A stretch of DNA of 62,897 nucleotides, filler included, from a bacterium (GTDB taxonomy: Bacteria; UBA9089; CG2-30-40-21; SBAY01), in assembly GCA_040757115.1 (NCBI GenBank). It is 4 parts of 4 records of this genome, joined end to end, with 100 filler letters (N's around TTAATTAATTAA, not from the genome) between each part and the next. Parts side by side here need not be neighbours in the genome. Positions count along the whole stretch, not along the records: positions 1 to 15,873 come from JBFLYA010000081.1; 3 more parts are not named here. One strand, given 5' to 3'. Positions 1 to 31,699 of this stretch are shown here, piece by piece (within the stretch, counting starts at the first letter, position 1; every line of letters begins with the position of its first letter). The notes below the pieces were generated by a model. It did no database searches, was not told where the DNA came from, and worked only from the letters and a program-made list of their open reading frames with translations. Made by a program: the position numbers and the translations under genes.

Positions 1-1362
1 TAGGGAAACACCGATATTACTTAAATTCATAATTGCTACTTGAAAACTCACATTTTTTTCTCCTTGAGTAACTACATCAGGAAAAACAGAATTGTTTATT
101 TCTTGTAGTAATGGAGGATTTTCTACTGTTCTAATGGTAGTCTGAGTACTTCTGATACCGATAACAGCAAATTTGATTGTCCAGGTACCAGGGTTTTCAT
201 CATAATAATAAAAGTCTATCGTACTGGTACCGTCAGGTATTGTAAGAGTGGTTACAGAACCTCCTTCTGGGGTTAATCGAAATTCATAAGGATGATCTGG
301 AGTAGAATATGGAGTAATGATTAGTGAATCCTGGGTTATAGGATTATTAAATTCATCCTGTCGCTCGAGTCTAAATACCTCTGAGACACTTCCCGCAACC
401 GCAAATTGAGGTGCCAAAAGAAGGACTAAATGCTTTTCAGACGGGGTTAAAATACAGCCGTGTAGAGATATGGTTGTTTGGGTGTCGGAAGTAGCTAAAT
501 ACAACTGGCTATTGTAAGTTCCAGGGGATTGTCCCACCGGATAATCTAACCATAGGTATAGGGTTTGTGTTGCCCCTTGTTCTGAAGTAGCGGGATAAGT
601 GTGTATAGTTTGATAAGTAGGCGTGACGGTATTCTGAAGACTACTCGTATTGGTTAAGGCATAACCTAACGGGCCAGGCAAGGATATAGTGCCACCATTT
701 TCACCAATAAAATCCTCTGCCTTAATTTGTAAGATATAGTTGCTGTTAGAAATAATATTGAGATTAATAGGAGAAGTAAGCGGATTATCATTTGTATCGG
801 CAAAAGAAGAGGTAAAAAAGGCATCCTGGCTATCAATGTTTATCTCGCTGTAATAGGCGTTACTAATATTTATTTCACCTGATACATCCTGGGATTGGTT
901 TGTATAACATACGACCACTTTAATCTTCCAATCAGAATTTTGTTGATACCTTGCTATTTTGCCTGGAGTAAAAACTAATTTCAAAGTTCCTGTCCCGGTA
1001 GTAGAAGTAGCAATTTTACAATTATCTTTATCAATAGTCCAGATAGAACTTAATGGACCAACTAATTTCCAGCCGTCATTTTTACTCCATTGATAAGTAG
1101 CGTGGTCAATTGGGGTATCTGTTCCTTTTTCTGAATTTGTTGTTCTATCCCAGATATAGAAATTAACTCCATAGATAACATCAGATTCATCAAAGAACTG
1201 GACCAAAAGTGTCATTTCATCATTTGGAGTCATTTGTGAAGTAGAAGTAGTAGTTTGGCCGTTATCATCTTCAAAAAGTGTTACTGTTCCTACTTGCGGG
1301 ATATAAGCCTCGCTGAGATTACAAGTCAGGATTAAAAATCCTATTAAAATAATATATCTCAT
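1..1362 (-). CDS. Large secreted/surface protein, partial (runs off the window start)
   Basis: Open frame from ATG at 1362 (MRYIILIGFLILTCNLSEAYIPQ, signal-peptide-like) to position 1; Thr/Ser-rich, beta-strand-like; near-identical to ORF 14657-15727 over ~340 codons. Confidence 0.8.
   Translation of the reverse strand, partial: MRYIILIGFLILTCNLSEAYIPQVGTVTLFEDDNGQTTTSTSQMTPNDEMTLLVQFFDESDVIYGVNFYIWDRTTNSEKGTDTPIDHATYQWSKNDGWKLVGPLSSIWTIDKDNCKIATSTTGTGTLKLVFTPGKIARYQQNSDWKIKVVVCYTNQSQDVSGEINISNAYYSEINIDSQDAFFTSSFADTNDNPLTSPINLNIISNSNYILQIKAEDFIGENGGTISLPGPLGYALTNTSSLQNTVTPTYQTIHTYPATSEQGATQTLYLWLDYPVGQSPGTYNSQLYLATSDTQTTISLHGCILTPSEKHLVLLLAPQFAVAGSVSEVFRLERQDEFNNPITQDSLIITPYSTPDHPYEFRLTPEGGSVTTLTIPDGTSTIDFYYYDENPGTWTIKFAVIGIRSTQTTIRTVENPPLLQEINNSVFPDVVTQGEKNVSFQVAIMNLSNIGVSL
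325..1353. repeat. ~1.03 kb direct repeat, copy 1
   Basis: Aligns to 14672-15700 at a constant offset of 14347 with scattered substitutions. Confidence 0.95.
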
Positions 1363-1627
1363 CAATATTATTTATACCATAATTATTTCTAATTGTCAAT
1401 CAAAGAAACAAAAATGGGTGCGTGTAAAATTTGTAGGTAAAGTGTAAAAAAGGGGTTAGGGGAATAGTGGAGATATAGAAATGGCGTTCCTTCTTTTATT
1501 TTCGGCATAACTAATAATTTTCTTTATCTCTTTTTTCTTTTCTTTTTGATAACTTATTTAGTCTCTCTCCTTTTTTAAAAAAAGATGGGGAAGTTCTGTA
1601 TGGGGCTCTTTAGATATTCATTTATGT

Positions 1628-3349
1628 TCACATATTTTTGCTTTTACTTTCCTTTTTGATGTTCTGCAGACGCTGGATGGTTTTTTGAAGGTCATCAATA
1701 GATATATCCAGTTTATCAGCTAATTTTTCCTGGTTTTTTTCATACCTGGTAAGTTTTTCTTCAATAAACTTGAGGATTCTATTTTGCTTACTAAGTGCCA
1801 CTCTTAGATGCTCAGCTGATACCCCCCAACTTTCTGCCAATGCCTCAATATTTCCATGATGACCAGCCAGAGAGATAAATATGTGCTCCTTCTCTTGCTC
1901 AAAGTACTTATGCACTGTAGCATGGGAAATCTGTAGTCTTTTGCTTACCTGCTCCAAATTACCTCCTTTTTCTATATAGGTTTGGAGAAATTTAGAGCAT
2001 GGAGATTGTATTTTGGAGATTATAGGTTGAGGTGCTTTTGTAAGACTTGATTTATCAATGGGAGTTAATAGTAGCTTTTCAGAAGCAATAAAGTTCTTTA
2101 TCTCATCTATGGTTATTATATTATTACTCCGAAAATATACTGCCCGTTCAAGGATATGTTCCAGCTGTCTAACATTACCAGGATAATCAAACCCTTTCAG
2201 ATATTCTATAGCCTTATCTTCAAGAGATAACTCTTCTTTTTCCTCAATGCCAAATTTATGGATAAAGTGCCTTGCCAGATTTGGGATATCCTCAAGTCTT
2301 TCTCGAAGAGACGGGATATGAATTGGTATAACATTAAGTCTATAATACAAATCCTCTCTAAAAAAGCCTTCTTTTACTGCTTTTGCCAAATCCTTATTCG
2401 TAGCGGCAATTATCCTAACATCAATTGGAATTGGGTTAGGTGAGCCAAGGCGTTGAATTACCTTTTCCTGAATAGCTCTGAGTAACTTAGTTTGAATTTC
2501 TCCTGAAATCTCACCAATCTCATCTATAAATAGAGTAGTTCCATCTGCCTTTTCAAAATAGCCCACTTCATCCTTTATAGCACCAGTATATGCTCCTTTA
2601 TTATGTCCAAATAATGCTGATTCAATTAGATTTGATGAAAGGGCAGGGATAGATACTTCAATCATAAGGTTATTTTTACGAGGACTATTATAGTGAATAG
2701 CCGCCGCAATCATACCTTTTCCTGTTCCAGTTTCGCCTGTGAGTAATATTACTGGTTCGTATTTCTTCTGGCTAATTTTCTCAATAGTTTCATAGATATT
2801 ACGCATTGAAGAACTATTTCCTACTAAATTACCAAGATGATATTCGATTCCTTCAGCCTTTCTTAATTCATCAAAATTATATCGTTTCCTTTGGCGTTCT
2901 ACAGAATATTGAGTTTGACTTGAAAGTCGTAATTGAATCTTTTTATCCTTTACTTTCTCCAATGCGTTCCTGATAGCAGTCTGTAATCTTGTTGGGTCAT
3001 CACTCATTCTATCTTTAAGGATATAGTCGAATGCCCCTTTTTTCATCGCCTTAGTAGCATCATCTGCCCCTACTCCTACACCTGTAAGGACAATTACTTG
3101 AATCATAGAATCAAATTCTTTAATTTTCTCCAATAATCTAAATCCAATCTCTTCTGTGGCAAACCCTCCTTTTTCATGGGGTAACCGCAAGTCTAAAATA
3201 ACCACTTCTGGTTGTAACTTAAGGTTTTCAATTACTTCCTTTCCACTTGCCGCCTCATATACGGTATAATCTGATTTTAACTTTTTTACCACAAAGTGGC
3301 GAAAGGTTTCTTCATCTTCTACTACCAAAATGACATTACTTTTTGCCAT
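1628..3349 (-). CDS. Sigma54-dependent NtrC-type activator (REC-AAA+-HTH)
   Basis: REC (VVEDE, ILDL, VLTG, ILK); Walker A GETGTGKG; ESALFGH..GAYTGA; FIDEIGE; FREDLYYRLNV; PGNVRQL; ATG at 3349 with SD GAAGGGG. Confidence 0.95.
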   Translation of the reverse strand: MAKSNVILVVEDEETFRHFVVKKLKSDYTVYEAASGKEVIENLKLQPEVVILDLRLPHEKGGFATEEIGFRLLEKIKEFDSMIQVIVLTGVGVGADDATKAMKKGAFDYILKDRMSDDPTRLQTAIRNALEKVKDKKIQLRLSSQTQYSVERQRKRYNFDELRKAEGIEYHLGNLVGNSSSMRNIYETIEKISQKKYEPVILLTGETGTGKGMIAAAIHYNSPRKNNLMIEVSIPALSSNLIESALFGHNKGAYTGAIKDEVGYFEKADGTTLFIDEIGEISGEIQTKLLRAIQEKVIQRLGSPNPIPIDVRIIAATNKDLAKAVKEGFFREDLYYRLNVIPIHIPSLRERLEDIPNLARHFIHKFGIEEKEELSLEDKAIEYLKGFDYPGNVRQLEHILERAVYFRSNNIITIDEIKNFIASEKLLLTPIDKSSLTKAPQPIISKIQSPCSKFLQTYIEKGGNLEQVSKRLQISHATVHKYFEQEKEHIFISLAGHHGNIEALAESWGVSAEHLRVALSKQNRILKFIEEKLTRYEKNQEKLADKLDISIDDLQKTIQRLQNIKKESKSKNM

Positions 3350-3366
3350 TTTTTTATCCCCTTCTT

Positions 3367-3747
3367 TCAAGATTTTTTAAGGCATTTCTCAATAATATCA
3401 AGTACCTTTTCAAAAACTCCAAGAGTATCTTTCAGCAGACATTCAAAAGCACCTTTCCTCTTAGCATCTTCATAATCAAACTCCTTTGAACTCAAAATAA
3501 TTACCTGAATTTTAGGATTAGTTTTCTTGATTTTTTCTAATACCTCAAATCCCATATCAGTTTCCACCACTCCTCCTTGCTCTTCAGGAAATTCCATATC
3601 TAATATGACTACATCAGGATTAGTTTTAAGTTCTTCAATTGCCTCTTTTGCAGTCATAGCACTGCGTACTTCATATAACGGACTTATCTTTTCTTTCAAA
3701 AGATGACGGTACTCTTTTCTATCTTCCACAATAAGAATTTTAGCCAT
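3367..3747 (-). CDS. Single-domain response regulator
   Basis: ILIVED, VVILDM, IILSS, LLK receiver motifs; no output domain. Confidence 0.9.
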   Translation of the reverse strand: MAKILIVEDRKEYRHLLKEKISPLYEVRSAMTAKEAIEELKTNPDVVILDMEFPEEQGGVVETDMGFEVLEKIKKTNPKIQVIILSSKEFDYEDAKRKGAFECLLKDTLGVFEKVLDIIEKCLKKS

Positions 3748-3770
3748 TCTTTTATTCCACTCCTTTCTAT

Positions 3771-4763
3771 TTAAGGTTTATATGAAAATGCTATGATTTT
3801 ATCCTCGGGTAATTCCGTAGCATCAGAAAATTTATCCTTCCTTTTAATTATATCTCGTGTAGATTTAGAAATCAGTATCCCGTTTGTATCTGCGTTTTTT
3901 TGTAAATGTCCAGTGATATGGAGTACTTCTCCAAATGCCTTTTTTTCTTCCGAACTTAATATTACCTTCCCCGTATGAATCCCTATTCTAAAATTAAACT
4001 CCTCTTTTAATCTGTTCCTTTCCTTATTAAACCTACCTCTTCCCTCCAAAATACTAATTCCTGCATCTATTGCCTCATTTGGGTCTTCAAAATAACACAT
4101 TCCTTCGTCTCCAACTGAATTTAAAATCTCTCCCTTATGTTTAAGAACTGTCTCCTTAACATACTCATGATACTCATTTAACGAATAGATAATATTGATG
4201 TCTTTTCTTTCGTGATTTTTTTCTTCTCTCAGCATCTTTGTTGATTTAACCAGGTCAATGTCAAGGAATGTATATGTCTTAGTAAATTCTTTTCTAATGA
4301 TGTTATCTAATTCAAGTATCCTTTTGATTATTTCTATTAATGATAATGATTTTTCTGGTAAAATTTTTTGCCTTTTTAATAATGCCTTTTTTATCTCATC
4401 GATTAACTCTTGAGAATTTACCTCATCTTTTAAGAAATAGCTTACTGCTCCTTTATTAAAAGCCCGCCGAATAAACTTTCCATCATCCACTGTTCCACTA
4501 ATCATTATTATTTGAATATTAGGTTCAAATTCTAATACTATCTCTAATAAATCACCGCCAATTATCTCTGCCATACCCCCGATTCGCCATGGTAGCCCTA
4601 CATCCAGGATAATCACATCTGGCTTCAGGAGCATAATTCTTTTAAGCAATTCTATGCCTGTTCCCGCTTCAAATACTTCATAATTTGGTTTGAGCCACTT
4701 AACTATTCTTTTACGATAGTGATTATCATCATCAACCACTAAAATGATATTCTTTTCACCCAT
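3771..4763 (-). CDS. Response regulator with class III adenylate/guanylate cyclase output
   Basis: N-terminal REC (VVDDD, ILDV, MISG, FLK); cyclase motifs TFLDIDLVKST, VGDEGMCYF, FRIGIHTG, GILISKST. Confidence 0.88.
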   Translation of the reverse strand: MGEKNIILVVDDDNHYRKRIVKWLKPNYEVFEAGTGIELLKRIMLLKPDVIILDVGLPWRIGGMAEIIGGDLLEIVLEFEPNIQIIMISGTVDDGKFIRRAFNKGAVSYFLKDEVNSQELIDEIKKALLKRQKILPEKSLSLIEIIKRILELDNIIRKEFTKTYTFLDIDLVKSTKMLREEKNHERKDINIIYSLNEYHEYVKETVLKHKGEILNSVGDEGMCYFEDPNEAIDAGISILEGRGRFNKERNRLKEEFNFRIGIHTGKVILSSEEKKAFGEVLHITGHLQKNADTNGILISKSTRDIIKRKDKFSDATELPEDKIIAFSYKP

Positions 4764-4786
4764 TTCTATCCTTATTCTTTTTCTTT

Positions 4787-5674
4787 CTAAATAAGATTTC
4801 TTTTCTTCATAAAAAATTCTCTATCTTGTTCTGATGTCCAACATTTCCCAATGTATTCTTTTAGTAATATTACCCGATTATCTGCTGATACAAATTCTTT
4901 TATTCTATAATCATCCATTAATACAATGCTAATTTTATTCTCCCTTATGAGAACATCTTTAATATCGCTGGTAAAACCACTTGGAGAAATGTAAAGTGCA
5001 ACATTACACGATTCAAATCTAATATTCTCACTAATCTTACGAATAAATGCCCTCATCATTTCTGAATCCACTTTTTCTGACAGATTCTTACATTCAACAG
5101 GAATATTATATCCTACTCTCTGCCAGAATCCAAACCCAATCTCATTATTAATAAGAATATCTATTTCTGCAGCCGGTGGTCTTACATTTTTCCTTGCCGA
5201 AAAGCCATCAATACCGTTGAAAATATACTCCATAAGACTTTCTAAAATAGCACCTTTTTTGTTATTGTTATCTATTTCATTTAAACTTAGGCAAAATTCT
5301 ATGAGTAACAAAATAAATTCTAACGGTGACTTTTCTTTTCTTAACTGGAAATAAGGACTAATTTTCCCGAGAGGTTCTTTATAAATCTCTGTTTCTGTCC
5401 CGGTATAAATAATTATTTCTACATTTGGTCTGGTTTGTTTAATCTTTTCAAAGTAGTGCTCATCTATAACTTTTTCTATTCCATTTTTAAATTCCTTAAG
5501 TTTAAGGTCGGTAATAAGCAATTTGATATTGTCGGATGTCAATTTATCTATTACTTCCTCCTCAGAAGTGACTAAGATAGGAGTATAATTTCTTTTGCTC
5601 AATTCATCTTCTAAAAACTTTAAAGATATTTCATCATTGCATGCTATCAGAATATTCGGTTTTTGATTGTTCAT
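4787..5674 (-). CDS. Receiver domain fused to Mrr-like PD-(D/E)xK restriction endonuclease
   Basis: REC-like N-terminus (ILIACND, LLITDL, IIYTG, LRK); C-terminal KGAILESL...EIDILI...VECKN...ISPSGFT. Confidence 0.8.
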   Translation of the reverse strand: MNNQKPNILIACNDEISLKFLEDELSKRNYTPILVTSEEEVIDKLTSDNIKLLITDLKLKEFKNGIEKVIDEHYFEKIKQTRPNVEIIIYTGTETEIYKEPLGKISPYFQLRKEKSPLEFILLLIEFCLSLNEIDNNNKKGAILESLMEYIFNGIDGFSARKNVRPPAAEIDILINNEIGFGFWQRVGYNIPVECKNLSEKVDSEMMRAFIRKISENIRFESCNVALYISPSGFTSDIKDVLIRENKISIVLMDDYRIKEFVSADNRVILLKEYIGKCWTSEQDREFFMKKRNLI

Positions 5675-7281
5675 GATAAATTATTTCCTGCCTTAATAGG
5701 TAATTCAATAGGTAATTCAACACTAATCTTAGAACCTTCTCCTATTTTAGTCCACTCCACAAATATATCCCCTTTGTGTTTCTTCATAATGGTTTTACAA
5801 GATGATAGTCCCAAACCCATCCCTGTTTCCTTTTTAGATGTGACAAATAAATCAAAAATTTTCTCCCTCTCATCCTCTCTAATTCCACAACCATTATCTT
5901 CAAAAGATATAAAAATCTTCCTCTTATCCTCAGCAATAGATACGGTTATTCTAAGTATTCCTTCTTGTATATTTTTTATCTTTATGGCATCAATAGCATT
6001 TGAAATTAAATTACTAAAGACCATACCTATTTTCCCCTTATCAATATTAATCTCAATATCTTCTTTTGTAGGAATATCAGGCAATTTCGGAGGCTTTATC
6101 TTATTTTCGCTCATTTTTCCCCAATATTGGGTTAAGGCTTCTTCAAGGAGTTCATTTATAGTATTTATCCTGCAAGGTAATAAATTAAGTTCCCTTCTTC
6201 CTTTAGTGTAATTTCTTAACTCATCAACTATCATTTTTAATCTTTCTTTAATTCTTGTAATCTCTTGTAAGTTCTTTGTTTTAATATACTCTTCAAGAGG
6301 CATTATCAGGGGACTAATTTCATGAACTATTCCTCCACTTAATTTACCTAATTCTGCCTCTGTTTCTAATCTTTTTACTTCTCTAACTGATTCAATATAT
6401 TGAACGAAAATGGCAAGATGAGTGGCAATCTTTTGGATAAAAGGGATATCTTCCCTTAAGACTTCATGCTCTTTGGTCGTATAGATATTTATAAATCCTA
6501 TAAGTTTATTTCCTACTTTCAGGGGGATTAAAAGAAGAGTTTGACTTTCCTTAATAAGTTTTAACTCTTTGGACAAGGGATATAAAGGGTCACCTATTTT
6601 AATATCTCTTATCATCTTTATTTTTCCATCCTGGAGCAGCTTTAAATCAGATGATTTTAATTCTATCGACTTTTCTATCACATCTTTCTCTTTTTTTTCA
6701 GATACTTTTAAGCAAGATTTGATTATTGCTTTACTATCTCTTATAAGGAGAAGAACTCCTCCATCACATTTAAATAAGTGTTCCAACTTATTTATTAGAT
6801 GTAATACTTCTTCCAATCCTAACTCTTCTGTAACAAACTTCTCTGTAATAAGAAATAGATTTTCTAATTCTATAATCTTACGGTCTAATTCTGCCTTCAT
6901 CGCATGGTATTGAAATGCCTTTTCTATAACAACCCGAAGAGCCTCATTACTAAAAGGTTTTGTAATGTAATTAAAAGCTCCATCCTTCATTGCCTTAACT
7001 GCTGTGGAGATATTATTTACAGCCGTTAACATTATCACTTCCATCTCTGGTGCAAATTTCTTTATCTCAGATAAAACCCTCATCCCTTCATCAGATGTAT
7101 CCATAATTATATCCAGAAGTATCACTTGTGGTCCTTTATCTTTAGCTAATCTTATACCTTCTTCTCCATTAGGAGCTAATAATACCATATATCCTTCTTC
7201 TTCTAATGTTCTTTTCAACATATAGCGATGATTTTCATCATCTTCAATAACTAATAACTTTTTCTCCTTCATCTTTTTCAC
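5671..7281 (-). CDS. Hybrid histidine kinase (REC-GAF-HisKA-HATPase)
   Basis: REC (VIEDD, LLDI, MLTA, ITKP); GAF-like LLLIPLKVGNKLIGFINI; H-box IVHEIS; NLISNAID; EDNGCGI; GMGLGL. Confidence 0.92.
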   Translation of the reverse strand: MKKMKEKKLLVIEDDENHRYMLKRTLEEEGYMVLLAPNGEEGIRLAKDKGPQVILLDIIMDTSDEGMRVLSEIKKFAPEMEVIMLTAVNNISTAVKAMKDGAFNYITKPFSNEALRVVIEKAFQYHAMKAELDRKIIELENLFLITEKFVTEELGLEEVLHLINKLEHLFKCDGGVLLLIRDSKAIIKSCLKVSEKKEKDVIEKSIELKSSDLKLLQDGKIKMIRDIKIGDPLYPLSKELKLIKESQTLLLIPLKVGNKLIGFINIYTTKEHEVLREDIPFIQKIATHLAIFVQYIESVREVKRLETEAELGKLSGGIVHEISPLIMPLEEYIKTKNLQEITRIKERLKMIVDELRNYTKGRRELNLLPCRINTINELLEEALTQYWGKMSENKIKPPKLPDIPTKEDIEINIDKGKIGMVFSNLISNAIDAIKIKNIQEGILRITVSIAEDKRKIFISFEDNGCGIREDEREKIFDLFVTSKKETGMGLGLSSCKTIMKKHKGDIFVEWTKIGEGSKISVELPIELPIKAGNNLS

Positions 7282-7287
7282 TCTCCT

Positions 7288-10134
7288 TTAAACTGGTAAT
7301 TTGATGGTAAATGTTGTCCCTTCACCTTCCTTACTATCTACTTTAATGTTTCCTTTATGCTCTTTAATAATCCCACGACATATCCATAACCCTAATCCCT
7401 TACCTTTATGGCTCCCTCTGGTAAAGAATGGGTTGAAGATTTGATTAATATCTTTCTCGGGAATTCCCCCACCCGTATCTGATATTTCCACCTTTACAAA
7501 ATCATCTGTTGGAGGAAAAGTTTTTACCTCTAAACTACCTCCCTTTGACATAGACTGAATAGCATTTTTGATGATATTTATAAACACCTGCCCCAATTGT
7601 AATTGGTCAGCATTGACAGGAGGTAAATCTGGAGCTAAAACTATACTCGGAGTAATTGAATATTGGTGTAACTCTTGTTTTAACTGTCCTAATGCATCAT
7701 TTATGATGGTATTAATATCAATTGGTCTAAGATGAGGTGCTGATATTTTTGCCTCTTGTAAGCCATCAATCACCATTTGTGCTTGGTCAGTAGCCAGTTG
7801 TATCCTTCTTAAATCTTCATTTTGTGGCTCTTTTTTAAGCAATAATCCACTTAGTCCTTTAATAGTGCTTAATGGATTGCTAATCTCATGTGCCGCCCTA
7901 TCAGCTAATTCACCAATTGAGATTAATCTTTCAGATTCTAATCGTTCCATCTCTCTCTTTAATCTTTCCTCATATATCTTATTATATTTCTGGTTTACCT
8001 TTTCAACCATCTCTTCCTCATTAACTACCATACCAATTTGCTCTCCAACAATTGATAAGAATTCCATATCATCATTGTCAAAAGAGTTGGGTATAACACT
8101 TTGGACTGCTAATACCCCAACGGTATTCCCCTCAAATTCTGAAGGCACTGCTAATTCCTCTCCATTTCCATTTATTTTAGAAATTTTGTGTGATTTTCTC
8201 TCCCTCCCAACTATTCCAATGACTCCATCTCCTAATTTATATTCACTTGCCTGTGACCAATTTATATCAGATTTTATCTTTAATCTTCCGTCTTTGAGTT
8301 CAAAAAAGGCACATTCAGCCACATTAATTCCTTCAAATACCTTTTTTACAATTTGGGACAAAATGGTTGAAAATTCCTTATCAGAAGATATTATTTTTGA
8401 GATTTCATTTAATATATGTAGTTGTTCACAGATAGTCTTATGTTTAATCATAAGGGTTATTTGCTCGGTTAAAAAAGAGATGAAATTTCTATCTGTTTCA
8501 CTTATTGGAGAGTTTGAGTTATAGACAGCTAATATACCAAGAGATTTATTTTCATTTACTAAAGGAATTGCCAATACTGAACCTTTCTCTCCAAACTGAA
8601 GTTTAAGAAAAGAATCTGTTTTTGCATCTTCTTCTATATCAGGATTAAAATAGTCCTGCCCTTCTAATATAACCTCAACAAGATGTGGTTTTCTTTCTAT
8701 TTTCTGTGTAAGATCAATCCAAAATTTATCTTTAGAGATTTGATTTTCAGAGTCAACTATCTGGTCACATTTAAGTTTTCCTTCCTTTCTATCTATCAAA
8801 TATAAATAACTCCTTTCAAAATTGAAGTATTTTACAATTGCCTCTAATATATTCTTCAATATTGTATCAAGAGGAAGTTTATTTAACATTGAGATAGTAA
8901 CGTTAGTGATTAGACCTACCTGCATTTGAGAAATTCTTGCCACATTCTTTAACTCATCTTGCTTCATATTGTCATAATAATCCTTAAAATCTATGGATGC
9001 CTTTCCATATTCTTTTTTTCTAATGTAAATTCGAGCAAAGTACTCTTTAGTGAAATGTCTCTTTAAAATATCCTTATAAAGAGGAGTTCTTATTTTAATC
9101 TTATTACCATCTCTGATAATTATTCCCGATAACTCAAGTTTTCTAAAACTTGCATCCCATTGACCAACAATATAGATATCTTCTTTGTCATAGAGCAAAG
9201 TTTCTAATATCTTCAATAATTCTAAGTCTTTCTCCAAATCCCGTTCAATTTTTAAAGTTAGGAAAGTAAAAGTTTCATCTTCATCCATTCCTATTTGCTC
9301 AACAGATTCTTTAAATTCTTCCATGGTTATATGTTCTATTCCTTGTTTTAGCTTTCGTTGGGCTGTATCAAATAAGATATAACATATTTTTTGAACTAAG
9401 TAAGGGTGCCCTTTTGTTATCTCATAAAGTCTATTAACACAATCTGGAGTTATCTTAATTCCAAATATCTCAAGTTGTTGAATAAACACTAATACTTCTT
9501 CCTTTCGAAAATCCCGTAGGATTATTGGTTTGGCTATATTAAAAGGAGAAGTTTTATCATCTTGTCCTATTGTTAGCTCAAATAAATCTACTGTTCCTGA
9601 AATTAAAATATTAATCTTTGAATAACTTGGATTTATAGTAGATTCATTATATATTGTCCTTAAAACCAATAGCAATTCTCTGGCTATTTCTTTAGGTAAA
9701 ATCTCTATCCCATCAAGTAAAAATAATATCTTAGAATCTATCTTTGATGCAATATTTTCAAGGAAATATCTAAAGAGACTTGCATTTCTTATGATTGTTC
9801 CTCCAGTCATCCCACCCAGTCCTTTTTTTCGGACATGAAAAATAATATACTGGGCTAAATGTTGGTAGAAGGTTTCTAAGTTATAATCTTTAATCTTTTC
9901 AAAATTAATATAAATGGAATAATAATGAAGGTGGTTGTCTTTATTAATTTCGCCCATCAGTTGGTAAATAAATGTTGTCTTACCTGTATGATTAGGGGCT
10001 AATAGACTAAAGTAATTTCCCCTTTTTAGACCAATTATTACATCATCTATTTCTGCCTTTCTAATAATGGACACTGCCTTATCTTTCTCCTGGTCAAGCG
10101 CTCTATCATAGACAAATGGATTTATCTTTTCCAT
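7288..10134 (-). CDS. STAND/AAA-like ATPase-GAF-GAF histidine kinase
   Basis: NPFVY...LLAPNHTGKTT, FLLDGIE, SPFNIAKPIILRDF, TKGHPYLVQ (AAA_35-like); two GAF-like segments; AAHEISNPL; NIIKNA; SDTGGGI; GKGLGL; no hydrophobic TM stretch seen. Confidence 0.88.
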   Translation of the reverse strand: MEKINPFVYDRALDQEKDKAVSIIRKAEIDDVIIGLKRGNYFSLLAPNHTGKTTFIYQLMGEINKDNHLHYYSIYINFEKIKDYNLETFYQHLAQYIIFHVRKKGLGGMTGGTIIRNASLFRYFLENIASKIDSKILFLLDGIEILPKEIARELLLVLRTIYNESTINPSYSKINILISGTVDLFELTIGQDDKTSPFNIAKPIILRDFRKEEVLVFIQQLEIFGIKITPDCVNRLYEITKGHPYLVQKICYILFDTAQRKLKQGIEHITMEEFKESVEQIGMDEDETFTFLTLKIERDLEKDLELLKILETLLYDKEDIYIVGQWDASFRKLELSGIIIRDGNKIKIRTPLYKDILKRHFTKEYFARIYIRKKEYGKASIDFKDYYDNMKQDELKNVARISQMQVGLITNVTISMLNKLPLDTILKNILEAIVKYFNFERSYLYLIDRKEGKLKCDQIVDSENQISKDKFWIDLTQKIERKPHLVEVILEGQDYFNPDIEEDAKTDSFLKLQFGEKGSVLAIPLVNENKSLGILAVYNSNSPISETDRNFISFLTEQITLMIKHKTICEQLHILNEISKIISSDKEFSTILSQIVKKVFEGINVAECAFFELKDGRLKIKSDINWSQASEYKLGDGVIGIVGRERKSHKISKINGNGEELAVPSEFEGNTVGVLAVQSVIPNSFDNDDMEFLSIVGEQIGMVVNEEEMVEKVNQKYNKIYEERLKREMERLESERLISIGELADRAAHEISNPLSTIKGLSGLLLKKEPQNEDLRRIQLATDQAQMVIDGLQEAKISAPHLRPIDINTIINDALGQLKQELHQYSITPSIVLAPDLPPVNADQLQLGQVFINIIKNAIQSMSKGGSLEVKTFPPTDDFVKVEISDTGGGIPEKDINQIFNPFFTRGSHKGKGLGLWICRGIIKEHKGNIKVDSKEGEGTTFTIKLPV

Positions 10135-10136
10135 GA

Positions 10137-12212
10137 TTATATTATCCCCTCCTTTAGACTTTCTTTTAATATATATTTTCTCTCTATATTATTTTTTATT
10201 ATTGTTGGAAGTCTATCGAATAAAAAGGAATATTCTTTTCCATTCTTATCCAATACTCCTAATAGAATGAGATTATCCATATCTTTATCCACCTCATCAA
10301 TTTTAATAACTATTCCTTCGTTCTTCAGGGTATGGTGAATTGTCTCAAAAGAAATAGGTGGTTTCATATTGATAATATTAAAAATGATACTCCGCTTCAG
10401 GTTATCTTTATCAAAGGTTGGCAAAAATATGTTAAGGAGATCCCTCTCAAAATTAGAATCCATATAAATTCTATTAATTAAACTATCCGAGACAATCCTA
10501 TTATTACTCTTTGACAAACTTTCAATCAATTTCTCACAAAAAGCCTGGATACAACTTGGATGAAGTGATACTAAATTAAGAATTTTATCGATATTTTTTA
10601 TAGGGTCTATAAAGCTTACGCCAAGGTTTCCCATTGGTTCTCGAATTAAATTCTCTCCACCTGGTTTGTCTAAGACAGAAAGATGAATAGATTTAGTAAA
10701 GTGATAAAGAGGTGAATCTATATCTTTAGTTTGAAAATATAGCACCTTAAATCCAGCCATAATACATCTACAATAACCGTTAAATGCTAAATCCCTGAGG
10801 GCTGAGATGAGTAAATATCCATTCTTTTTATCTATATCAATAAGATTGTCAATCTCATCCAGCAAAAAGATAACCCTTTCATTTTTAACACTGAAATACC
10901 TAAAAAATGATAACATATCCTTTATTTCCTCCGTTGGGATTTCTAACCGGTGACATACTAATGAGAAGAAGTCTTCATAATCTCTACAAATACTGCAGTC
11001 AATAAAGATAACCTTACTATCTCCATTCTTTTCCATCTCTTTCTTTACTTTTAATAGTAAGGATGTTTTACCCATCCTTCGTCCTCCAACAATGGTATAA
11101 TTTACACCTTTATTCTCCATAAGTTCTTTGATTTCTTTTTGTCTGCCATAGAAATTTTTTGTAGGACCAAGTGAACAATATGGAGATACCTGACGCAAAC
11201 CTATCTGCTCAACTATACATTTGATAAAGGCTTTCTTAGAATCATAGGCAGAAAATACCTTTTTTAAATCCTCCTTATTTAGTACCACAAGTTGATAAGC
11301 AGAATTTTTTACCCATTGCTTAAGTTTTGTAGAATCTTTATCGGCTATGATAAAAGATATATCATTTTGAACCTTTTCTCTTCTGATAATATTTTCTATA
11401 TTCGAAATAATATCCTTATTTATTTCTGGCACTACCATAAATAGAGAATCCTCCTTCTTCATTTTAATTCTCATCCTTTCTATGTCAATCTTAAAATAGA
11501 TTATTTGTTGTGCAGAAACTTGTTTTTTAATCTCAAATCCTACAAATTTCGCCAAATTACCTAATAAGTTAGATAATCTCTCACCATCTCCAGTTTCAAT
11601 TGATTCTAAACTATCAAGAATTGGAGATATAATCCTTCGCCGCTCGTCACTCAATAGTACCTCAGGAAGAATATTATCCTTTCCTATACCTGAAATAGTC
11701 ATTTTTGCTTCTTTTCTGTTGTCAACCACACATTTTTCTAAAATCAACCTAATGTCTTGTAAAGTAAATTCCGAGGTATCTATGACTAAATTCGCCTCTT
11801 TTCTTAATCCTTCTAAATATCTCCGTTCAATTTTAATATTCTCTAATAGTCCTCTCCGTCTTCCCCATGGATGTGGTCTTCCTGTCTTTTCATATCGATG
11901 TTTAATTACCTCATCAGAAGCATCTAAGAATATAAGTTTATAATCAATACCTATTTCAGATAGTTTCTTTAGATTAGAAAATACTCCATTTGAAAGTCCT
12001 ACTTCTCCTGTATCAAGTACAAGACAATAGGATTTTCTCTTACTTTTACCGTTAATACAAGTTCTTACAAATTCTGGTAGTAGAGAGGGAGGTAAATTCA
12101 CTACATGATGATATTCCATATCCTTAAAACATTTTGCCGCTTCGCCTTTACCTGCACCAGAAATACCGGCAATAATAACAAATTTAATCATTTTAGCCAT
12201 TTCATTTGTCAC
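10137..12212 (-). CDS. RapZ N-terminal P-loop domain fused to a STAND-type ATPase
   Basis: N-terminal GISGAGK, VVNLPP, IFLDASDEVIKHRYEKTGRPHP, VIDTS (RapZ/YvcJ-like); C-terminal SPY..GP..NFYGR, VGGRRMGKTSLL, FLLDEID, HP..IQ; GTG start with SD AGGGGG. Confidence 0.82.
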   Translation of the reverse strand: MTNEMAKMIKFVIIAGISGAGKGEAAKCFKDMEYHHVVNLPPSLLPEFVRTCINGKSKRKSYCLVLDTGEVGLSNGVFSNLKKLSEIGIDYKLIFLDASDEVIKHRYEKTGRPHPWGRRRGLLENIKIERRYLEGLRKEANLVIDTSEFTLQDIRLILEKCVVDNRKEAKMTISGIGKDNILPEVLLSDERRRIISPILDSLESIETGDGERLSNLLGNLAKFVGFEIKKQVSAQQIIYFKIDIERMRIKMKKEDSLFMVVPEINKDIISNIENIIRREKVQNDISFIIADKDSTKLKQWVKNSAYQLVVLNKEDLKKVFSAYDSKKAFIKCIVEQIGLRQVSPYCSLGPTKNFYGRQKEIKELMENKGVNYTIVGGRRMGKTSLLLKVKKEMEKNGDSKVIFIDCSICRDYEDFFSLVCHRLEIPTEEIKDMLSFFRYFSVKNERVIFLLDEIDNLIDIDKKNGYLLISALRDLAFNGYCRCIMAGFKVLYFQTKDIDSPLYHFTKSIHLSVLDKPGGENLIREPMGNLGVSFIDPIKNIDKILNLVSLHPSCIQAFCEKLIESLSKSNNRIVSDSLINRIYMDSNFERDLLNIFLPTFDKDNLKRSIIFNIINMKPPISFETIHHTLKNEGIVIKIDEVDKDMDNLILLGVLDKNGKEYSFLFDRLPTIIKNNIERKYILKESLKEGII

Positions 12213-12269
12213 CCCCCTATCATCTTATTTAATATTTCTTAATAAATTTCCCTTTTGTCTTAAAAGAGT

Positions 12270-12286
12270 AGCAAATTTTATGCCAG
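12270..12286 (-). promoter_or_regulatory. Sigma54 (-24/-12) promoter of the signalling operon
   Basis: Minus strand CTGGCATAAAATTTGCT = GG-N10-GC with TGGCA and TTGC boxes, ~60 bp upstream of the first gene. Confidence 0.75.
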
Positions 12287-12537
12287 GGTAGCAGTAAATT
12301 TAGTTTTCATCCCAATAGAGTAAAACAATACATACATTTTTAATCTTATCACTTATCCATGACCAAAATTTCCTATCCGTCCTTTACTATACAAATTTCA
12401 ACTTTCTGCATATACATTTTACCAAAGATTGTATAAAAAAGCAAGTTGTTTTTCAACTGAGCTGATAAATCGAAAGTAAAAATTTACGGATTGGGAGTAA
12501 AGAGTGGATTTGTAAAAAATATGACCGATTAAGTAAT

Positions 12538-14039
12538 CTATCTATTCTCTTTGGGGTGAAGCAGGGCAAGAATTTCTTTTATCGTCTGTCCGTGGGCCTC
12601 CGCAGATTCAAGAATGTTTACGATACGGTTTCTCTCTGCCTCTTTAACTAAATTTCCATATTGCCTCGTGGTAAATAAACCAAGTCCCCCTTTTGGTGTA
12701 TATACAACTATACTTAACCCTCCTAATCCAGTCGCCCATTTTCCTGAAAGTCTATACCTCTGATCCTGCCAGGCATCAGGATGTCTCATCTTCATAATAT
12801 GTTCCGAGTTGTAAAGCATTAACGCAAAAGTAATCCGTGCATTTATCGTATTAAATTTACGACCTGCAAGCCTCTCAATTTTCCATCGCTGGTTAAGTTC
12901 CCTAAACCCCTGATTCTCAATTATCCATCTTGAACGATAATAATTCCTTATTTTAAAAGGGTTCTTTATCGTAGGTAAAGAAGTGATATACTGAACTGGA
13001 CGACGGATACTGCTATCCTCATTATGAAGAGAATTCCCTTTTATGTCCCTCTCATCCGAAACAACTGCATTAGTTAACCCTATTTGATTGCCCTTTTCAT
13101 CATAAAGAGGGATACCTTCAATCCCTGTTGATCTAACCTTTATCTCGCCAAATTGGCTGTGTTCCTCCCTCCTCCATATCCACTTAACATCCCCTCCTTC
13201 TATACACATCTCTATATATTTAACTACCTCAAGCCTTTCATCTCTGGCTCTGGTTACATAATCTATTCCAAAATCCCTCTTTAATCCTGTCAAATATTCA
13301 GCCCCCCACTATCCTCTATCCATGGCTAACACATCCATCCACTCTCTCAATGGTGCAATCTCCTGGTTAAGACGCAAAAGCATCTCACGAAGCATTACCT
13401 TCTCACTGGTCTGAAGCGGTACCAGAGAAAAACCAACTATCCGTTCACGATTAGCCGTTATATTCAACAACAACACCAATTTGTATCCCCTCTTACTTCC
13501 TACTTGCCCAATGTTCTCATACTTCTTCCCATAGGGAATAATTATCTCCATAGCATCTGCAAGGTATACCTTACCACGAATCCAACGTCGTTCCCTCAAT
13601 AGACGAACATGCTTTGTAAAATTATGCAAAACATTTGAAACTCCAATCCTTGCAAGATGATTAGACAGTATCTCAGGATCAATAACCAATTTACCTCTCT
13701 TTTTTGCCAACTCTACATCCTCTACATTAAAAATCCAGCAACTAACATCAATCGTGCATCGGATAATACCTTCCCACACTGACTGATTGCTTCTATATCT
13801 GCTAATTCGCGAAGGATTTCTATACTATTAAGAACTCGGGGAGATTTGCCATTTTCCTTCTTCAACTCTGTAGGCTGCATACTTACCATCGTTTCCCATA
13901 ACCCACTCCTCACCAAAAATTCTATCCAAAAATCATTCTCCCCATAACCTGATAAAACCGCCTCATACTCCTCCTTTTCCACTATTGCTTTCTCACAAAC
14001 AGAATTGTTGTGAAACCAAACCTTATACCCTTTATCCAT
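12538..14039 (-). pseudogene. DDE transposase (IS4-superfamily-like), frameshifted and with an in-frame stop
   Basis: Motifs YLADA, AMDRG*W, YYRSRWIIENQGFRELN; frameshift in a T run near 13730; in-frame TAG at 13309-13311. Confidence 0.85.
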
Positions 14040-14412
14040 CTTTTTCCTCCTCCCTAAAGGGTTCTTTAGATTGTGCCTTTCCTAATTCCCTGAACAATTC
14101 CCTAACTTCATTACTTATCTTCCACCACTTTGTAAGATATCTATTGAATTCGCACCACTGGGAAGTTTCCTTCTTCATCCGTAGCAATTCTTGTTTTTTG
14201 ACATATTTCAATTTGGTTTTCCCAGATATCTTGCCTGATAAATAATAAGCAGAAGAACTTCTCTTCTTTGCTGATGTTCCAAGTCTACGTTTAATCAAAC
14301 ATACCATTATCATCTCTCTGTGTCTTAAAAGAGCTTTTTCCATATCTTGTTTCTCTTCAAGTTTTCTGGAAATTTTCTGTCTTATTTGATTTGCCATTTG
14401 CCTATCTTTCAT
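14032..14412 (-). CDS. Small basic IS-associated protein (DUF6788-like)
   Basis: AYYLSGKISGKTKLKYV pattern; overlaps the transposase start; lies inside the IS inverted repeats. Confidence 0.65.
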   Translation of the reverse strand: MKDRQMANQIRQKISRKLEEKQDMEKALLRHREMIMVCLIKRRLGTSAKKRSSSAYYLSGKISGKTKLKYVKKQELLRMKKETSQWCEFNRYLTKWWKISNEVRELFRELGKAQSKEPFREEEKDG

Positions 14413-14656
14413 AGTATCAGTATTATATATTACTGATACTTGTCAAGAAAAAAATACAGATAGGATAAAAATTTTTTGCCCTATCTGTAACTATTGATAT
14501 TTATTGATGTTACAGAACTTTCGATTTATCAGTCATTTTTGGGAGAAGGGAACTGCATCGTTCCAGTCCCCTTCCCCCAAACCTCTGTCCTCTGCGATAC
14601 GCCTTGACAGCCGTGATAATTGGGTGGTAGGGGATCGCTTTGCTCCCTTTTTTTTA

Positions 14657-15727
14657 TTATATTACGGCTGTTGAATCTTTGGTTATAGGATTATTAAATT
14701 CATCCTGTCGCTCGAGTCTAAATACCTCTGAGACAGTCCCCGCAACCGCAAATTGAGGTGCCAAAAGAAGGACTAAATGCTTTTCAGACGGGGTTAAAAT
14801 ACAGCCGTGTAGAGATATGGTTGTTTGCGTGTCGGAAGTAGCTAAATACGACTGGCTATTGTAAGTTCCAGGGGATTGTCCCACCGGATAATCTAACCAT
14901 AGGTATAGGGTTTGTGTTGCCCCTTGTTCTGAAGTAGCGGGATAAGTGCCCATAGTTTGATAAGTAGGCGTGACGGTATTCTGAAGACTACTCGTATTGG
15001 TTAAGGCATAACCTAACGGGCCAGGCAAGGATATAGTGCCACCATTTTCACCAATAAAATCCTCTGCCTTAATCTGTAAGATATAGTTGCTGTTAGAAAT
15101 AATATTGAGATTAATAGGAGAAGTAAGCGGATTATCATTTGTATCGGCAAAAGAAGAGGTAAAAAAGGCATCCTGGCTATCAATGTTTATCTCGCTGTAA
15201 TAGGCGTTACTAATATTTATTTCACCTGATACATCCTGGGATTGGTTTGTATAACATACGACCACTTTAATCTTCCAATCAGAATTTTGTTGATACCTTG
15301 CTATTTTGCCTGGAGTAAAAACTAATTTCAAAGTTCCTGTCCCGGTAGTAGAAGTAGCAATTTTACAATTATCTTTATCAATAGTCCAGGTAGAACTTAA
15401 TGGACCAACTAATTTCCAGCCGTCATTTTTACTCCATTGATAAGTAGCGTGGTCGATTGAGGTATCTGTTCCTTTTTCTGAATTTGTTGTTCCATCCCAG
15501 ATATAGAAATTAACTCCATAGATAACATCAAATTCATCAAAGACCTGGACCAAAAGTGTCATTTCATCATTTGGAGTCATTTGTGAAGTAGAAGTAGTAG
15601 TTTGGCCGTTATCATCTTCAAAAAGTGTTACTGTTCCTACTTGCGGAATATAAGCCTCGCTGAGATTATAAGTCAGGATTAAAAATCCTATTAAAATAAT
15701 CTGGAGTTTCGTGAATTTATTCATCAT
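14657..15727 (-). CDS. Secreted protein; C-terminally truncated paralog of the 1-1362 gene
   Basis: Signal-peptide-like start; stops 5 codons after the repeat ends, whereas copy 1 continues. Confidence 0.7.
   Translation of the reverse strand: MMNKFTKLQIILIGFLILTYNLSEAYIPQVGTVTLFEDDNGQTTTSTSQMTPNDEMTLLVQVFDEFDVIYGVNFYIWDGTTNSEKGTDTSIDHATYQWSKNDGWKLVGPLSSTWTIDKDNCKIATSTTGTGTLKLVFTPGKIARYQQNSDWKIKVVVCYTNQSQDVSGEINISNAYYSEINIDSQDAFFTSSFADTNDNPLTSPINLNIISNSNYILQIKAEDFIGENGGTISLPGPLGYALTNTSSLQNTVTPTYQTMGTYPATSEQGATQTLYLWLDYPVGQSPGTYNSQSYLATSDTQTTISLHGCILTPSEKHLVLLLAPQFAVAGTVSEVFRLERQDEFNNPITKDSTAVI
14672..15700. repeat. ~1.03 kb direct repeat, copy 2
   Basis: Matches 325-1353. Confidence 0.95.
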
Positions 15728-15873
15728 GGTTTAACCATAACCTTGGAATATAAATTCCAAATTTCAAATAACAAATTCCAAATAAATTCCAAGCACCAAA
15801 TTCCAAAACCTATTGCTTTATCAATTTTGTTAAAGGGAGTTGAATATTTTGCTCAATAATGTCAGATTTAGGT

Positions 15874-15973
15874 NNNNNNNNNNNNNNNNNNNNNNNNNNN
15901 NNNNNNNNNNNNNNNNNTTAATTAATTAANNNNNNNNNNNNNNNNNNNNNNNNNNNNNNNNNNNNNNNNNNNN
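15874..15973. other. Artificial contig spacer
   Basis: N44-TTAATTAATTAA-N44 (stops in all six frames). Confidence 0.98.
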
Positions 15974-31599: not shown

Positions 31600-31699
31600 N
31601 NNNNNNNNNNNNNNNNNNNNNNNNNNNNNNNNNNNNNNNNNNNTTAATTAATTAANNNNNNNNNNNNNNNNNNNNNNNNNNNNNNNNNNNNNNNNNNNN
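31600..31699. other. Artificial contig spacer
   Basis: N44-TTAATTAATTAA-N44. Confidence 0.98.

Follow-up and report, generated by a model that had tools for sequence, protein, structure and literature searches.

ORGANIZATION OF THE LOCUS

The window analyzed here, a 62,897-base stretch of DNA from an uncultivated groundwater bacterium of the GTDB lineage UBA9089; CG2-30-40-21; SBAY01 (assembly GCA_040757115.1), contains seven head-to-tail open reading frames (ORFs), g1 to g7, called on the minus strand between positions 1628 and 12212, that encode STAND-like NTPases, histidine kinases, and proteins with receiver (REC) domains. The window consists of four separate contigs of ~15.5 to 15.9 kb each, artificially joined by N44-TTAATTAATTAA-N44 linkers at 15874-15973, 31600-31699, and 47306-47405, so genes past position 15873 are not neighbors of this operon, which lies wholly within the first contig (1-15873) and whose genomic context was read from that contig alone. 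The spacers between consecutive genes from g1 to g7 are 2, 6, -4, 23, 23, and -4 nucleotides, and no terminator-like site was found on the minus strand from 1300 to 12700. Transmembrane segments are not evident in any of the seven proteins, in which no 19-residue window reached a Kyte-Doolittle value of 1.6 (maximum, 1.43). A preliminary description of this DNA, made from its sequence alone, had reported seven tightly coupled genes without evident transmembrane segments, and both observations held; each of the seven domain architectures it gave was also matched in Pfam, with marginal scores for g4. Its weakest parts were the nuclease label of g4, which has a marginal Pfam score and a poor AlphaFold2 (AF2) model, and the cyclase activity of g5.

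A TANDEM PAIR OF STAND-LIKE NTPASES

The protein encoded by g1 (10137 to 12212, minus strand) most likely starts at the ATG at 12200, which is preceded by a Shine-Dalgarno-like GGGGGG run. It combines a RapZ-like P-loop domain (residues ~5 to 160), an alpha/beta domain (~185 to 340) with a possible restriction endonuclease (REase)-like fold, and a STAND NTPase that includes helical and winged-helix parts (~345 to 687). Pfam finds RapZ-like_N (PF03668) at 121.6 bits and AAA_22 at 36.3 bits, with weak matches to AAA_35 and NACHT. When the AF2 model (pLDDT, 85.5; pTM, 0.75; 40-row alignment) was compared with the PDB by Foldseek, matches with a probability of 1.00 included the archaeal AAA+ proteins 2fna (TMt, 0.61) and 2qen (0.66), ORC/Cdc6, the wheat G10, NRC3, and NRC4 resistosomes, and Avs3 (8dgc); SAMD9 was also among the matches. 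The Walker A motif reads GGRRMGKT and Walker B reads LLDEID, with G377, K378, D448, and E449 invariant among 40 aligned relatives. Judged by these motifs and by its predicted fold, the C-terminal module is a genuine STAND-type NTPase. It did not match nSTAND1 (PF20703) at an E value of 0.01, but 31 of the best 48 among 150 listed STAND relatives, the ones scanned for domains, did so; of these best 48, 13 carry a Sortilin-Vps10 propeller, 2 a Pkinase domain, and 2 a caspase domain.

The N-terminus of g1 is a clear member of the RapZ family. Foldseek aligned it with the N-terminal domain of Rv1421 (TMt, 0.87; 34% identity) and with Escherichia coli RapZ, and phmmer found the same two proteins at E values of 2.1e-22 and 9.1e-17, respectively. 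Because this likeness stops at about residue 170, the phosphofructokinase-like C-terminal domain that binds glucosamine-6-phosphate (GlcN6P) and small RNA (sRNA) is absent, and the remainder is the candidate REase-fold domain plus the STAND module, g1 is not a RapZ ortholog. After the P-loop Lys of the RapZ domain, the three fused proteins found have Gly, Thr, or Val; with Gly also in Rv1421 and Ser in the E. coli protein, this residue is uninformative about activity. For the middle domain, no Pfam family matched residues 183 to 345 at an E value of 5. Its neighbors in the ESM Atlas were the N-termini of nSTAND1/AAA_22 proteins (TM, 0.70 to 0.74 by query) and Mrr_cat or NA-iREase1-type folds (TM, 0.58 to 0.73), all below the service's bar, so that an REase-like fold is a lead only.

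The fusion of a RapZ N-terminal domain to a STAND module is extremely rare. A word-indexed search of 5.8 billion proteins returned only P0002 (60% identity) and P0003 (40%) as full-length relatives, and an exhaustive search of 1.84 billion cluster representatives found two full-length clusters, P0001 (the window's own protein) and P0003, along with 312 clusters that matched at E values of <1e-30 in the STAND part only. None of 44 loci from a metagenome scan had full-length g1; most were ordinary RapZ, and L008, L039, and L047 matched in the STAND part only, L039 having no AAA_35 gene within 10 kb. A search of genome contigs with g1 alone returned no related locus, and a tblastn search of 72,556 plasmid records found rapZ genes only. 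Separately, RapZ-sized matches to the RapZ part (open frames of 291 to 331 amino acids) occur in 10 of 24 genomes searched from the phylum and in 0 of 5 genomes of the window's family.

The second gene, g2 (7288 to 10134, minus strand), encodes an AAA_35 (STAND-like) NTPase followed by two GAF domains and a histidine kinase that we call type A (AAA_35, 83.3 bits; HisKA, 31.3 bits; HATPase_c, 95.8 bits). Its P-loop GKTT and Walker B Asp are invariant in five relatives, and its kinase boxes are HEISNPL (H-box), DTGGG (G1), and GKGLG (G2). When a STAND profile built from the three full-length g1 proteins was run against the 24 phylum genomes, strong matches (E < 1e-40) to the STAND part were obtained in three, G019, G023, and G006, whose neighboring genes were then read; weaker matches occurred in G007, G014, and G001. 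In the window and in all three of these genomes, an AAA_35 gene with a signaling output directly follows the STAND gene. The output is GAF plus histidine kinase in the window and G019, a histidine kinase in G023, and an HD_5 (HD-GYP-type) domain in G006. In G023, a beta-propeller-STAND protein (1,093 amino acids) precedes an AAA_35-HisKA-HATPase_c protein (739 amino acids), and the contig ends 238 nucleotides on; in G006, an nSTAND1 protein (542 amino acids; PF20703, 44.8 bits) precedes the AAA_35-HD_5 protein (862 amino acids). Across the four loci, the first gene varies at its N-terminus, which is a RapZ domain, a propeller, or nothing, and the second varies at its C-terminus, which is always a signaling domain. 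The deeper conserved unit is this tandem of a g1-like STAND gene and an AAA_35 NTPase gene with a signaling output. P0163, 65% identical to g2 with the same architecture, is on a contig of 5,637 bp, exactly as long as that of P0002; the two contigs are probably identical, which would make these proteins a further g1-g2 pair.

Among 59 AAA_35 relatives, a kinase ATPase domain is present in 7, one of which is the window's own protein; 4 carry a Ser/Thr kinase, 9 PF08011, which we take to be a PD-(D/E)xK family, 3 only GAF, and 1 a TIR domain. Stand-alone AAA_35-GAF-GAF proteins of 718 to 738 amino acids, 57 to 60% identical to g2 over ~720 to 745 residues, are encoded in G008, G010, and G011, all from the window's family (L064, 2633-4789; L065, 3953-6169; L053, 474-2639). 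Their neighbors include PIN, ParE-like, NucS-like, aspartyl-protease, or NYN genes. At the G006 locus, the STAND/AAA_35-HD-GYP pair is followed, 1 kb downstream, by a gene for a 1,131-residue helicase (L089, 10492-13887). This helicase is matched both by the PADLOC model "C3a193, possible alternative Cas3" (E value, 1.7e-223) and by DpdF models.

Structure prediction for a complex of g1 (residues 190 to 687) with g2 (residues 1 to 400) gave a score of 0.59, compared with 0.00 for the best control, with at least 74% of contacts agreeing between runs and a partner pLDDT of at least 72. Of 80 solved complexes, 58 passed the mark used, as did 2 of 110 mismatched pairs, and scores of 0.60 or below were those of only 7 of the 80 solved complexes and of both passing mismatches. 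Both chains are AAA+-like and may owe the score to their resemblance to AAA+ oligomers of solved structure, and the model lends weak support to a g1-g2 complex.

A DISTANT LOCUS AND A SIGMA-54 PROMOTER POINT TO PROBABLE FEEDBACK

The last gene, g7 (1628 to 3370, minus strand), encodes a receiver, a sigma-54 activator AAA+ domain with its lid, and a C-terminal helix-turn-helix (HTH) extension (Response_reg, 60.2 bits; Sigma54_activat [PF00158], 209.9 bits; AAA_lid_14, 74 bits); within the C-terminal piece, HTH_8 (Fis type) scores 22.1 bits and DUF2089-HTH 31.6 bits. It has the Walker A (GETGTGKG) and Walker B (LFIDEI) motifs and, as GAYTGA, the GAFTGA-type loop of a sigma-54 enhancer-binding protein. 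A putative sigma-54 promoter, TGGCATAAAATTTGC, lies at 12271 to 12285 on the minus strand, 70 nucleotides upstream of the g1 ATG at 12200, the right distance for a promoter of the operon, and reads TGGCAT-N5-TTGC with -24 GG and -12 GC elements. It is the single exact match to TGGCAY-N5-TTGC in the 62.9-kb window, with 0.14 expected. Sigma-70-like sites were no commoner than in shuffled sequences (49 versus 51.2 expected). Within the window, tblastn found no sigma-54-like gene at an E value of 10, and no repeat convincing as an activator binding site was found from 12200 to 12560.

The one distant locus that is complete, L001, is a 26-kb contig of a metagenome-assembled genome (G019:C174; assembly of 2.2 Mb, 83% complete) and carries P0003. 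Its genes run in the order sigma-54-like protein (351 residues), RapZ-STAND, AAA_35 with three GAF domains and a histidine kinase, single receiver, receiver-cyclase, receiver-sigma-54 activator without an HTH, and alaS, with a peptidase gene on the other flank. Five of the seven window genes are thus kept in order at 28 to 44% identity (40% for the g1 ortholog), and the counterparts of g3 and g4 are missing. The preliminary description had proposed a search for conserved gene order in other genomes, and L001 bears it out for these five genes and not for g3 and g4, which, being absent from the only distant full locus, are by this comparison add-ons rather than core components. Exact sigma-54 promoters occur twice in L001 (0.01 expected), before the sigma-54-like gene and before the g1 ortholog. 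Both have the extended motif TGGCATA-N4-TTGCTA, which also stands before g1 in the window, and they are its only exact matches in the 2.2-Mb G019 assembly. No exact sigma-54 promoter was found before the STAND genes of the other two loci (L088 and L089), neither of which showed an activator gene.

With the sole exact promoter of the window standing before g1, and with a GAYTGA loop in g7, the sigma-54 arm would most simply act back on the operon's own promoter. The preliminary description was right that an activator is present and had counted it among the outputs; it looks more like feedback than like a separate output.

Two features of L001 differ from the window. Its sigma-54-like gene (1962-3017) is divergent, Pfam detecting only Sigma54_DBD (66.5 bits) in it, and it is the sole Sigma54_DBD match in the G019 assembly; four genomes of the window's family have one canonical sigma-54 each, of 474 to 490 residues. 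The L001 activator (10082-11290), to which g7 is 41% identical, stops after the lid without a DNA-binding domain, and NVATGV replaces the GAFTGA-type loop. The two may form a private pair, the activator being co-adapted to the adjacent sigma-54-like protein.

A CANDIDATE TWO-STEP PHOSPHORELAY

The kinase encoded by g3 (5671 to 7281, minus strand), which we call type B, follows a receiver and a GAF domain (Response_reg, 90.5 bits; GAF, 28.8 bits; HATPase_c, 72.9 bits); HisKA was not matched, and the boxes read HEISPL, DNGCG, and GMGLG. Both g2 and g3 therefore have the H-box His and the G1 and G2 ATP boxes of histidine kinases. The single-domain receiver g6 (3367 to 3747, minus strand; Response_reg, 55.5 bits) keeps its Asp and Lys and shares 43.8% identity with its single-domain counterpart in L001. 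In an alignment of nine receivers, neither the acceptor Asp nor the conserved Lys varies; the g3 receiver has the canonical Asp, Thr, and Lys, and the g4 receiver has ND in place of the acidic pair found in the rest. A seven-residue insertion after the acceptor Asp is present in g4, g5, g6, g7, the three L001 receivers, and the g4 homolog P0161 and is absent from g3.

In reciprocal best hits between kinases, the g3 kinase pairs with the AAA_35-GAF3 kinase of L001 (39.7% identity; 157 bits), the only kinase of that locus, and the g2 kinase pairs with the AAA_35-fused kinase of G023 (38.6% identity; 133 bits). Because a type B kinase is fused directly to AAA_35-GAF in L001 and the window has a receiver in that place, kinase A would be expected to signal to the g3 receiver. 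The insertion shared by g4 to g7 and lacking in g3 is consistent with kinase B alone acting on these four receivers. Together these likenesses suggest an order running from the g2 kinase to the g3 receiver, from there to the g3 kinase, and on to the receivers of g4 to g7.

CANDIDATE EFFECTORS

The g4 gene (4787 to 5674, minus strand) encodes a receiver joined to a candidate Mrr-like domain of the PD-(D/E)xK fold. Its Response_reg score of 25.1 bits falls below the cutoff of 30.2, its Mrr_cat (PF04471) score of 24.1 bits exceeds the cutoff of 21, and the motifs EIDIL and VECK correspond to the D...ExK pattern. The AF2 model, made from a two-row alignment, has a pLDDT of 47. In the ESM Atlas, g4 has a feature score of 0.94 to Mrr_cat clusters and a model with a pTM of 0.81, and one structural neighbor is a 66-member Response_reg-Mrr_cat cluster, mostly from Myxococcota (TM, 0.81 by query); receiver-Mrr proteins are therefore a recurrent regulator type. 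The single homolog detectable by sequence, P0161 (41% identity), has ECR in place of ECK, and no homolog was present in any of the 24 phylum genomes searched. A literature search on the receiver-Mrr output domain found nothing relevant.

The g5 gene (3771 to 4763, minus strand) encodes a receiver and a divergent class III nucleotide cyclase domain (Response_reg, 51.7 bits; Guanylate_cyc, 34.3 bits), with the Ma1120 cyclase as its best PDB match (8.9e-10). In class III cyclases, an Asn and an Arg act on the transition state, and a Lys contributes to substrate specificity. Both metal-binding Asp motifs are kept in g5 (FLDI and GDEGM); when g5 is aligned to Ma1120 by HMMER, however, Val and His occupy the Asn and Arg positions in the aligned stretch NVAMAAR, and the residue four before the GD Asp is Asn rather than the Lys of Ma1120 and L001. 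Both KFIGD and VNKASR are kept by the L001 ortholog. We also considered feedback from the cyclase to the GAF domains of the operon. NKFDE is the signature of GAF domains that bind cyclic nucleoside monophosphates, and a search of the GAF regions gave no match to an NKFDE-like signature inside a GAF domain, which leaves such feedback unsupported.

The preliminary description had named a nuclease, a cyclase, and a sigma-54 activator as outputs of a relay through two kinases. All of the genes are present, and the add-on status of g4 and g3 in the comparison with L001 removes the nuclease and the second kinase from the core; a cyclase domain with its metal-binding Asp residues is likewise there, without the canonical Asn/Arg and the specificity Lys.

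THE OPERON LIES IN A STRAIN-VARIABLE ISLAND

The nearest genome, G001 (100% complete by markers; 770 contigs), is 98% identical to the window over positions 1-1408 and 15696-15873. For 1409-15695, its only matches are short repeats and part of the g7 AAA+ domain at 67% identity, and a protein search found no g1. The island carrying the operon is thus strain-variable, or accessory. Direct repeats bracket it: the left copy (325-1353; 1,029 bp) is the 5' part of a surface-protein gene (1-1365) that runs off the contig, and the right copy (14672-15700; 98.3% identical) lies in a truncated copy of that gene (14657-15727). Directly upstream of the promoter region lies a remnant of an IS4-like insertion sequence (IS) with a DDE transposase (12538-14412, minus strand), broken into at least four ORFs, with DDE_Tnp_1 scoring 29.3 bits on 12538-13293. 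The direct repeats thus flank both the operon and the IS remnant, and recombination between them could delete the island. G+C content is 0.30 to 0.35 within the island and 0.36 to 0.38 at its edges, and no tRNA genes were found on the first contig.

A Logan contig of 13,152 letters from a groundwater metagenome (run X1, which is possibly the source sample and hence not independent) covers 1358-14509 with zero differences, the assembly branching at both edges; two further runs of the same study contained next to none of the sampled words. An element of ~60 bp at 15748-15816 occurs in more than 40 copies (78 to 89% identity) on many G001 contigs and looks like a miniature inverted-repeat transposable element or a repetitive extragenic palindromic element. 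Smaller repeated pieces lie at 1413-1483 and 12462-12517.

A PROPOSED SELF-AMPLIFYING SIGNALING CASSETTE

Our preferred interpretation, which we hold with slightly better than even confidence, is that the operon is a self-amplifying, strain-variable cytoplasmic signaling cassette in which a STAND pair drives a branched phosphorelay that returns to the operon's own sigma-54 promoter. The proteins of g1 and g2, whose genes are adjacent in the window, G019, G023, and G006, would form the input module, an intracellular ligand and nucleoside triphosphate driving their association or oligomerization and so switching on kinase A. Kinase A would phosphorylate the g3 receiver and thereby activate kinase B, which in turn would phosphorylate the receivers of g4, g5, g6, and g7. 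Once phosphorylated, g7 would activate RNA polymerase containing sigma-54 at the g1 promoter, and the operon would thereby be positively autoregulated. In parallel, g5 would make or bind a cyclic nucleotide, g4 would act on DNA through its Mrr-like domain, and g6 would serve as a phosphate sink or adaptor. The STAND pair, a kinase, three receivers, and the sigma-54 loop are the conserved part of this anatomy. The phrase "STAND-gated phosphorelay" in the preliminary description was a fair anatomical reading, given the STAND fold of g1, the recurrence of the pair, and the intact His, ATP-box, and receiver residues. What is combined here is of known kinds (STAND ATPases, two-component systems, and sigma-54 autoregulation) and is not a categorically new system.

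Several observations weigh against this interpretation. The accessory status and rarity of the operon, the nSTAND1-type relatives of g1, and the candidate REase-fold domains fit an immune function as well. The stand-alone AAA_35-GAF-GAF genes of G008, G010, and G011 have neither a kinase nor a g1-like neighbor on their short contigs, and so g1 is not an obligate partner of g2-like proteins. The distant comparison comprises one full locus and two partial ones. As the promoter search in the window strain covered the window's four contigs, g7 could have additional targets outside them, and regulation may have been altered by the IS remnant that adjoins the promoter region. The chemistry of the g5 cyclase may be altered, or the enzyme may be inactive. 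Finally, the precedent offered by RapZ (PMC7073468) requires full-length RapZ, and g1 resembles only its N-terminal domain.

Among the alternatives, a dedicated antiviral or abortive-infection system, in line with the immune or programmed-death circuit proposed in the preliminary description, survives best, although we consider it unlikely and rank a switch-like regulatory decision above it. Under this alternative, the STAND pair would sense a phage protein or an infection-induced metabolite, the relay would release a cyclic-nucleotide signal and the activity of the Mrr-like DNase, and feedback through sigma-54 would make the response all-or-none. Kaur et al. (eLife 2021; PMC8195603) defined nSTAND1 within predicted counter-invader systems. 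The nSTAND1-type grouping of the g1 STAND module, the caspase, protein kinase, or propeller domains of some of its relatives, and the TIR and PF08011 domains among AAA_35 relatives all suit such a role, as would REase-fold domains and the rarity of the fused g1 type. So do the absence of the island from a 98%-identical relative, its 1-kb direct repeats, and the adjoining IS remnant, along with the toxin-antitoxin-like genes (PIN, ParE-like, NucS-like, and NYN) beside the stand-alone g2-like genes and the alt-Cas3/DpdF-like helicase 1 kb from the G006 pair. However, no PADLOC-DB 2.0 system model matched the seven proteins or the L001, L088, and L089 pairs. What matched was generic receiver, AAA+, or cyclase likeness: the receiver portion of the SduA and PDC-M60B models, RtcR and PspF for the g7 AAA+ domain, and weakly PycC for g5 (2e-4) and mad8 for a P-loop (3.7e-4). 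The receiver-Mrr protein is absent from L001 and from 24 of 24 phylum genomes, and its sole homolog has Arg for the motif Lys. The fused outputs of the conserved pair are histidine kinase and HD-GYP domains rather than toxins, g1 has neither a C-terminal repeat sensor of the Avs or NLR (nucleotide-binding leucine-rich repeat) type nor a fused toxin, L001 sits between a peptidase gene and alaS, and the 72,556 plasmid records held no match beyond RapZ.

A broader version of this idea, in which the operon is a new kind of innate-immune or cell-fate circuit built from a heteromeric, effector-less pair of NLR-like STAND NTPases, a two-step relay, a bistable sigma-54 loop to which relatives would add a sigma-54 paralog of their own and an activator with a matching loop variant, and a receiver-gated DNase and cyclic nucleotide, we regard as rather unlikely.

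It is improbable that the operon is instead a RapZ-style regulator of metabolic or envelope state that replaces canonical RapZ, its RapZ and GAF domains sensing a nucleotide or sugar-phosphate pool and tuning a sigma-54 regulon. In proteobacteria, rapZ is linked to rpoN, and the g1 ortholog of L001 follows a sigma-54 gene, both of which count for this possibility, as do the clear family membership of the RapZ domain and the distribution of RapZ-sized genes, present in other phylum genomes and missing from the five of the window's family. E. coli RapZ, moreover, acts on QseE/QseF and a sigma-54 promoter (PMC7073468). However, the metabolite- and RNA-binding C-terminal domain is missing from g1, and in that study the E. 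coli N-terminal domain alone neither bound GlcN6P nor activated glmY. A housekeeping role also sits poorly with absence from a 98%-identical relative and with the absence of g1 from four of five family genomes, and the G023 and G006 STAND pairs have no RapZ domain.

That the operon is no single system, with two or three independent modules (g1-g2, g3-g4, and g5-g7) juxtaposed by recombination and sharing a transcript, is quite improbable: the lack of g3 and g4 in L001, the appearance of g2 as a lineage-specific AAA_35-GAF-GAF protein fused to another lineage's kinase, and the recombinogenic nature of the island would allow it, but the genes are spaced by 2 to 23 nucleotides or overlap by 4 with no internal terminator, L001 keeps the equivalents of g1, g2, and g5 to g7 together in the same order behind the same promoter, the g4 receiver has the insertion of g5 to g7, and the g3 receiver has no obvious donor except g2.

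RELATION TO KNOWN SYSTEMS

One of the closest known systems is RapZ of E. coli with QseE/QseF and the sigma-54 promoter of glmY (PMC7073468), in which RapZ binds QseE and QseF and stimulates their phosphorylation, neither isolated domain sufficing and the role of the N-domain being called unknown there. Both systems have a RapZ-type protein, a kinase, and a sigma-54 regulator. In contrast to that system, g1 has a candidate REase-fold domain and a STAND module in place of the GlcN6P/sRNA-binding domain, the kinases are predicted to be soluble, and the promoter drives the operon itself, with no sRNA as far as seen. Literature searches found no paper joining RapZ with a STAND NTPase and nothing relevant on PF14516 or AAA_35.

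With the nSTAND1-type NTPases of predicted prokaryotic conflict systems (PMC8195603; eLife 2020, PMC7159879), g1 shares the NTPase core, a preceding domain of possible REase fold, and variable N-termini, and its relatives include proteins with caspase, kinase, or propeller domains. Unlike those systems, g1 lacks an effector-associated domain, a Death-like adaptor, and a fused toxic effector, misses PF20703 at an E value of 0.01, and would deliver its output through histidine kinases, which, according to PMC7159879, were not found among the vWA-associated effectors. The Avs and bacterial NLR-like proteins share the STAND NTPase fold of g1, Avs3 (8dgc) being among its Foldseek matches, but g1 has neither their long C-terminal repeat sensor nor a fused nuclease or protease, and no PADLOC Avs model matched.

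Sigma-54 autoregulation is familiar from two-component systems of the NtrB/NtrC type, and activators without a DNA-binding domain, such as FlgR, are also known. The g7 protein shares with the NtrC type its receiver, AAA+, and HTH domains, the GAYTGA loop, and a sigma-54 promoter before its own operon, and the L001 activator resembles FlgR in having no HTH. Unlike the NtrB/NtrC type, the input here would be a STAND pair instead of a PAS or membrane sensor, with two serial kinases and four parallel receivers, and L001 has, in addition, a 351-residue sigma-54-like protein of its own and an NVATGV activator. Proteins annotated as "GAF domain-containing sensor histidine kinase" (such as P0168 and P0210) share the STAND-like NTPase, GAF, and kinase arrangement of g2; apart from P0163 (65%), AAA_35-GAF-kinase proteins of this type are 21 to 29% identical to g2.

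STAND and NLR-type NTPases are usually thought to oligomerize their own fused effector. The window and three related loci couple a STAND pair to histidine kinase or HD-GYP domains, which are classical bacterial outputs, and two-component signaling would then be a language in which NLR-like switches speak to the rest of the cell. With its conserved sigma-54 promoter, the operon offers a testable positive-feedback design, and in L001 the sigma-54-like gene and the altered-loop activator might together make up an orthogonal sigma-54/activator pair. The operon is also a handle on the function of the RapZ N-terminal domain. If an immune role proves correct, phosphorelay-wired defense would join the known repertoire; if it does not, the operon is still a compact natural multilayer intracellular sensory circuit.

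Elsewhere in the window, on the second contig, tandem 138-bp units (seen as 276-nucleotide copies of 61 to 89% identity) occupy 16291-16980 and stand at the start of a 1,193-codon ORF at 16342-19923.

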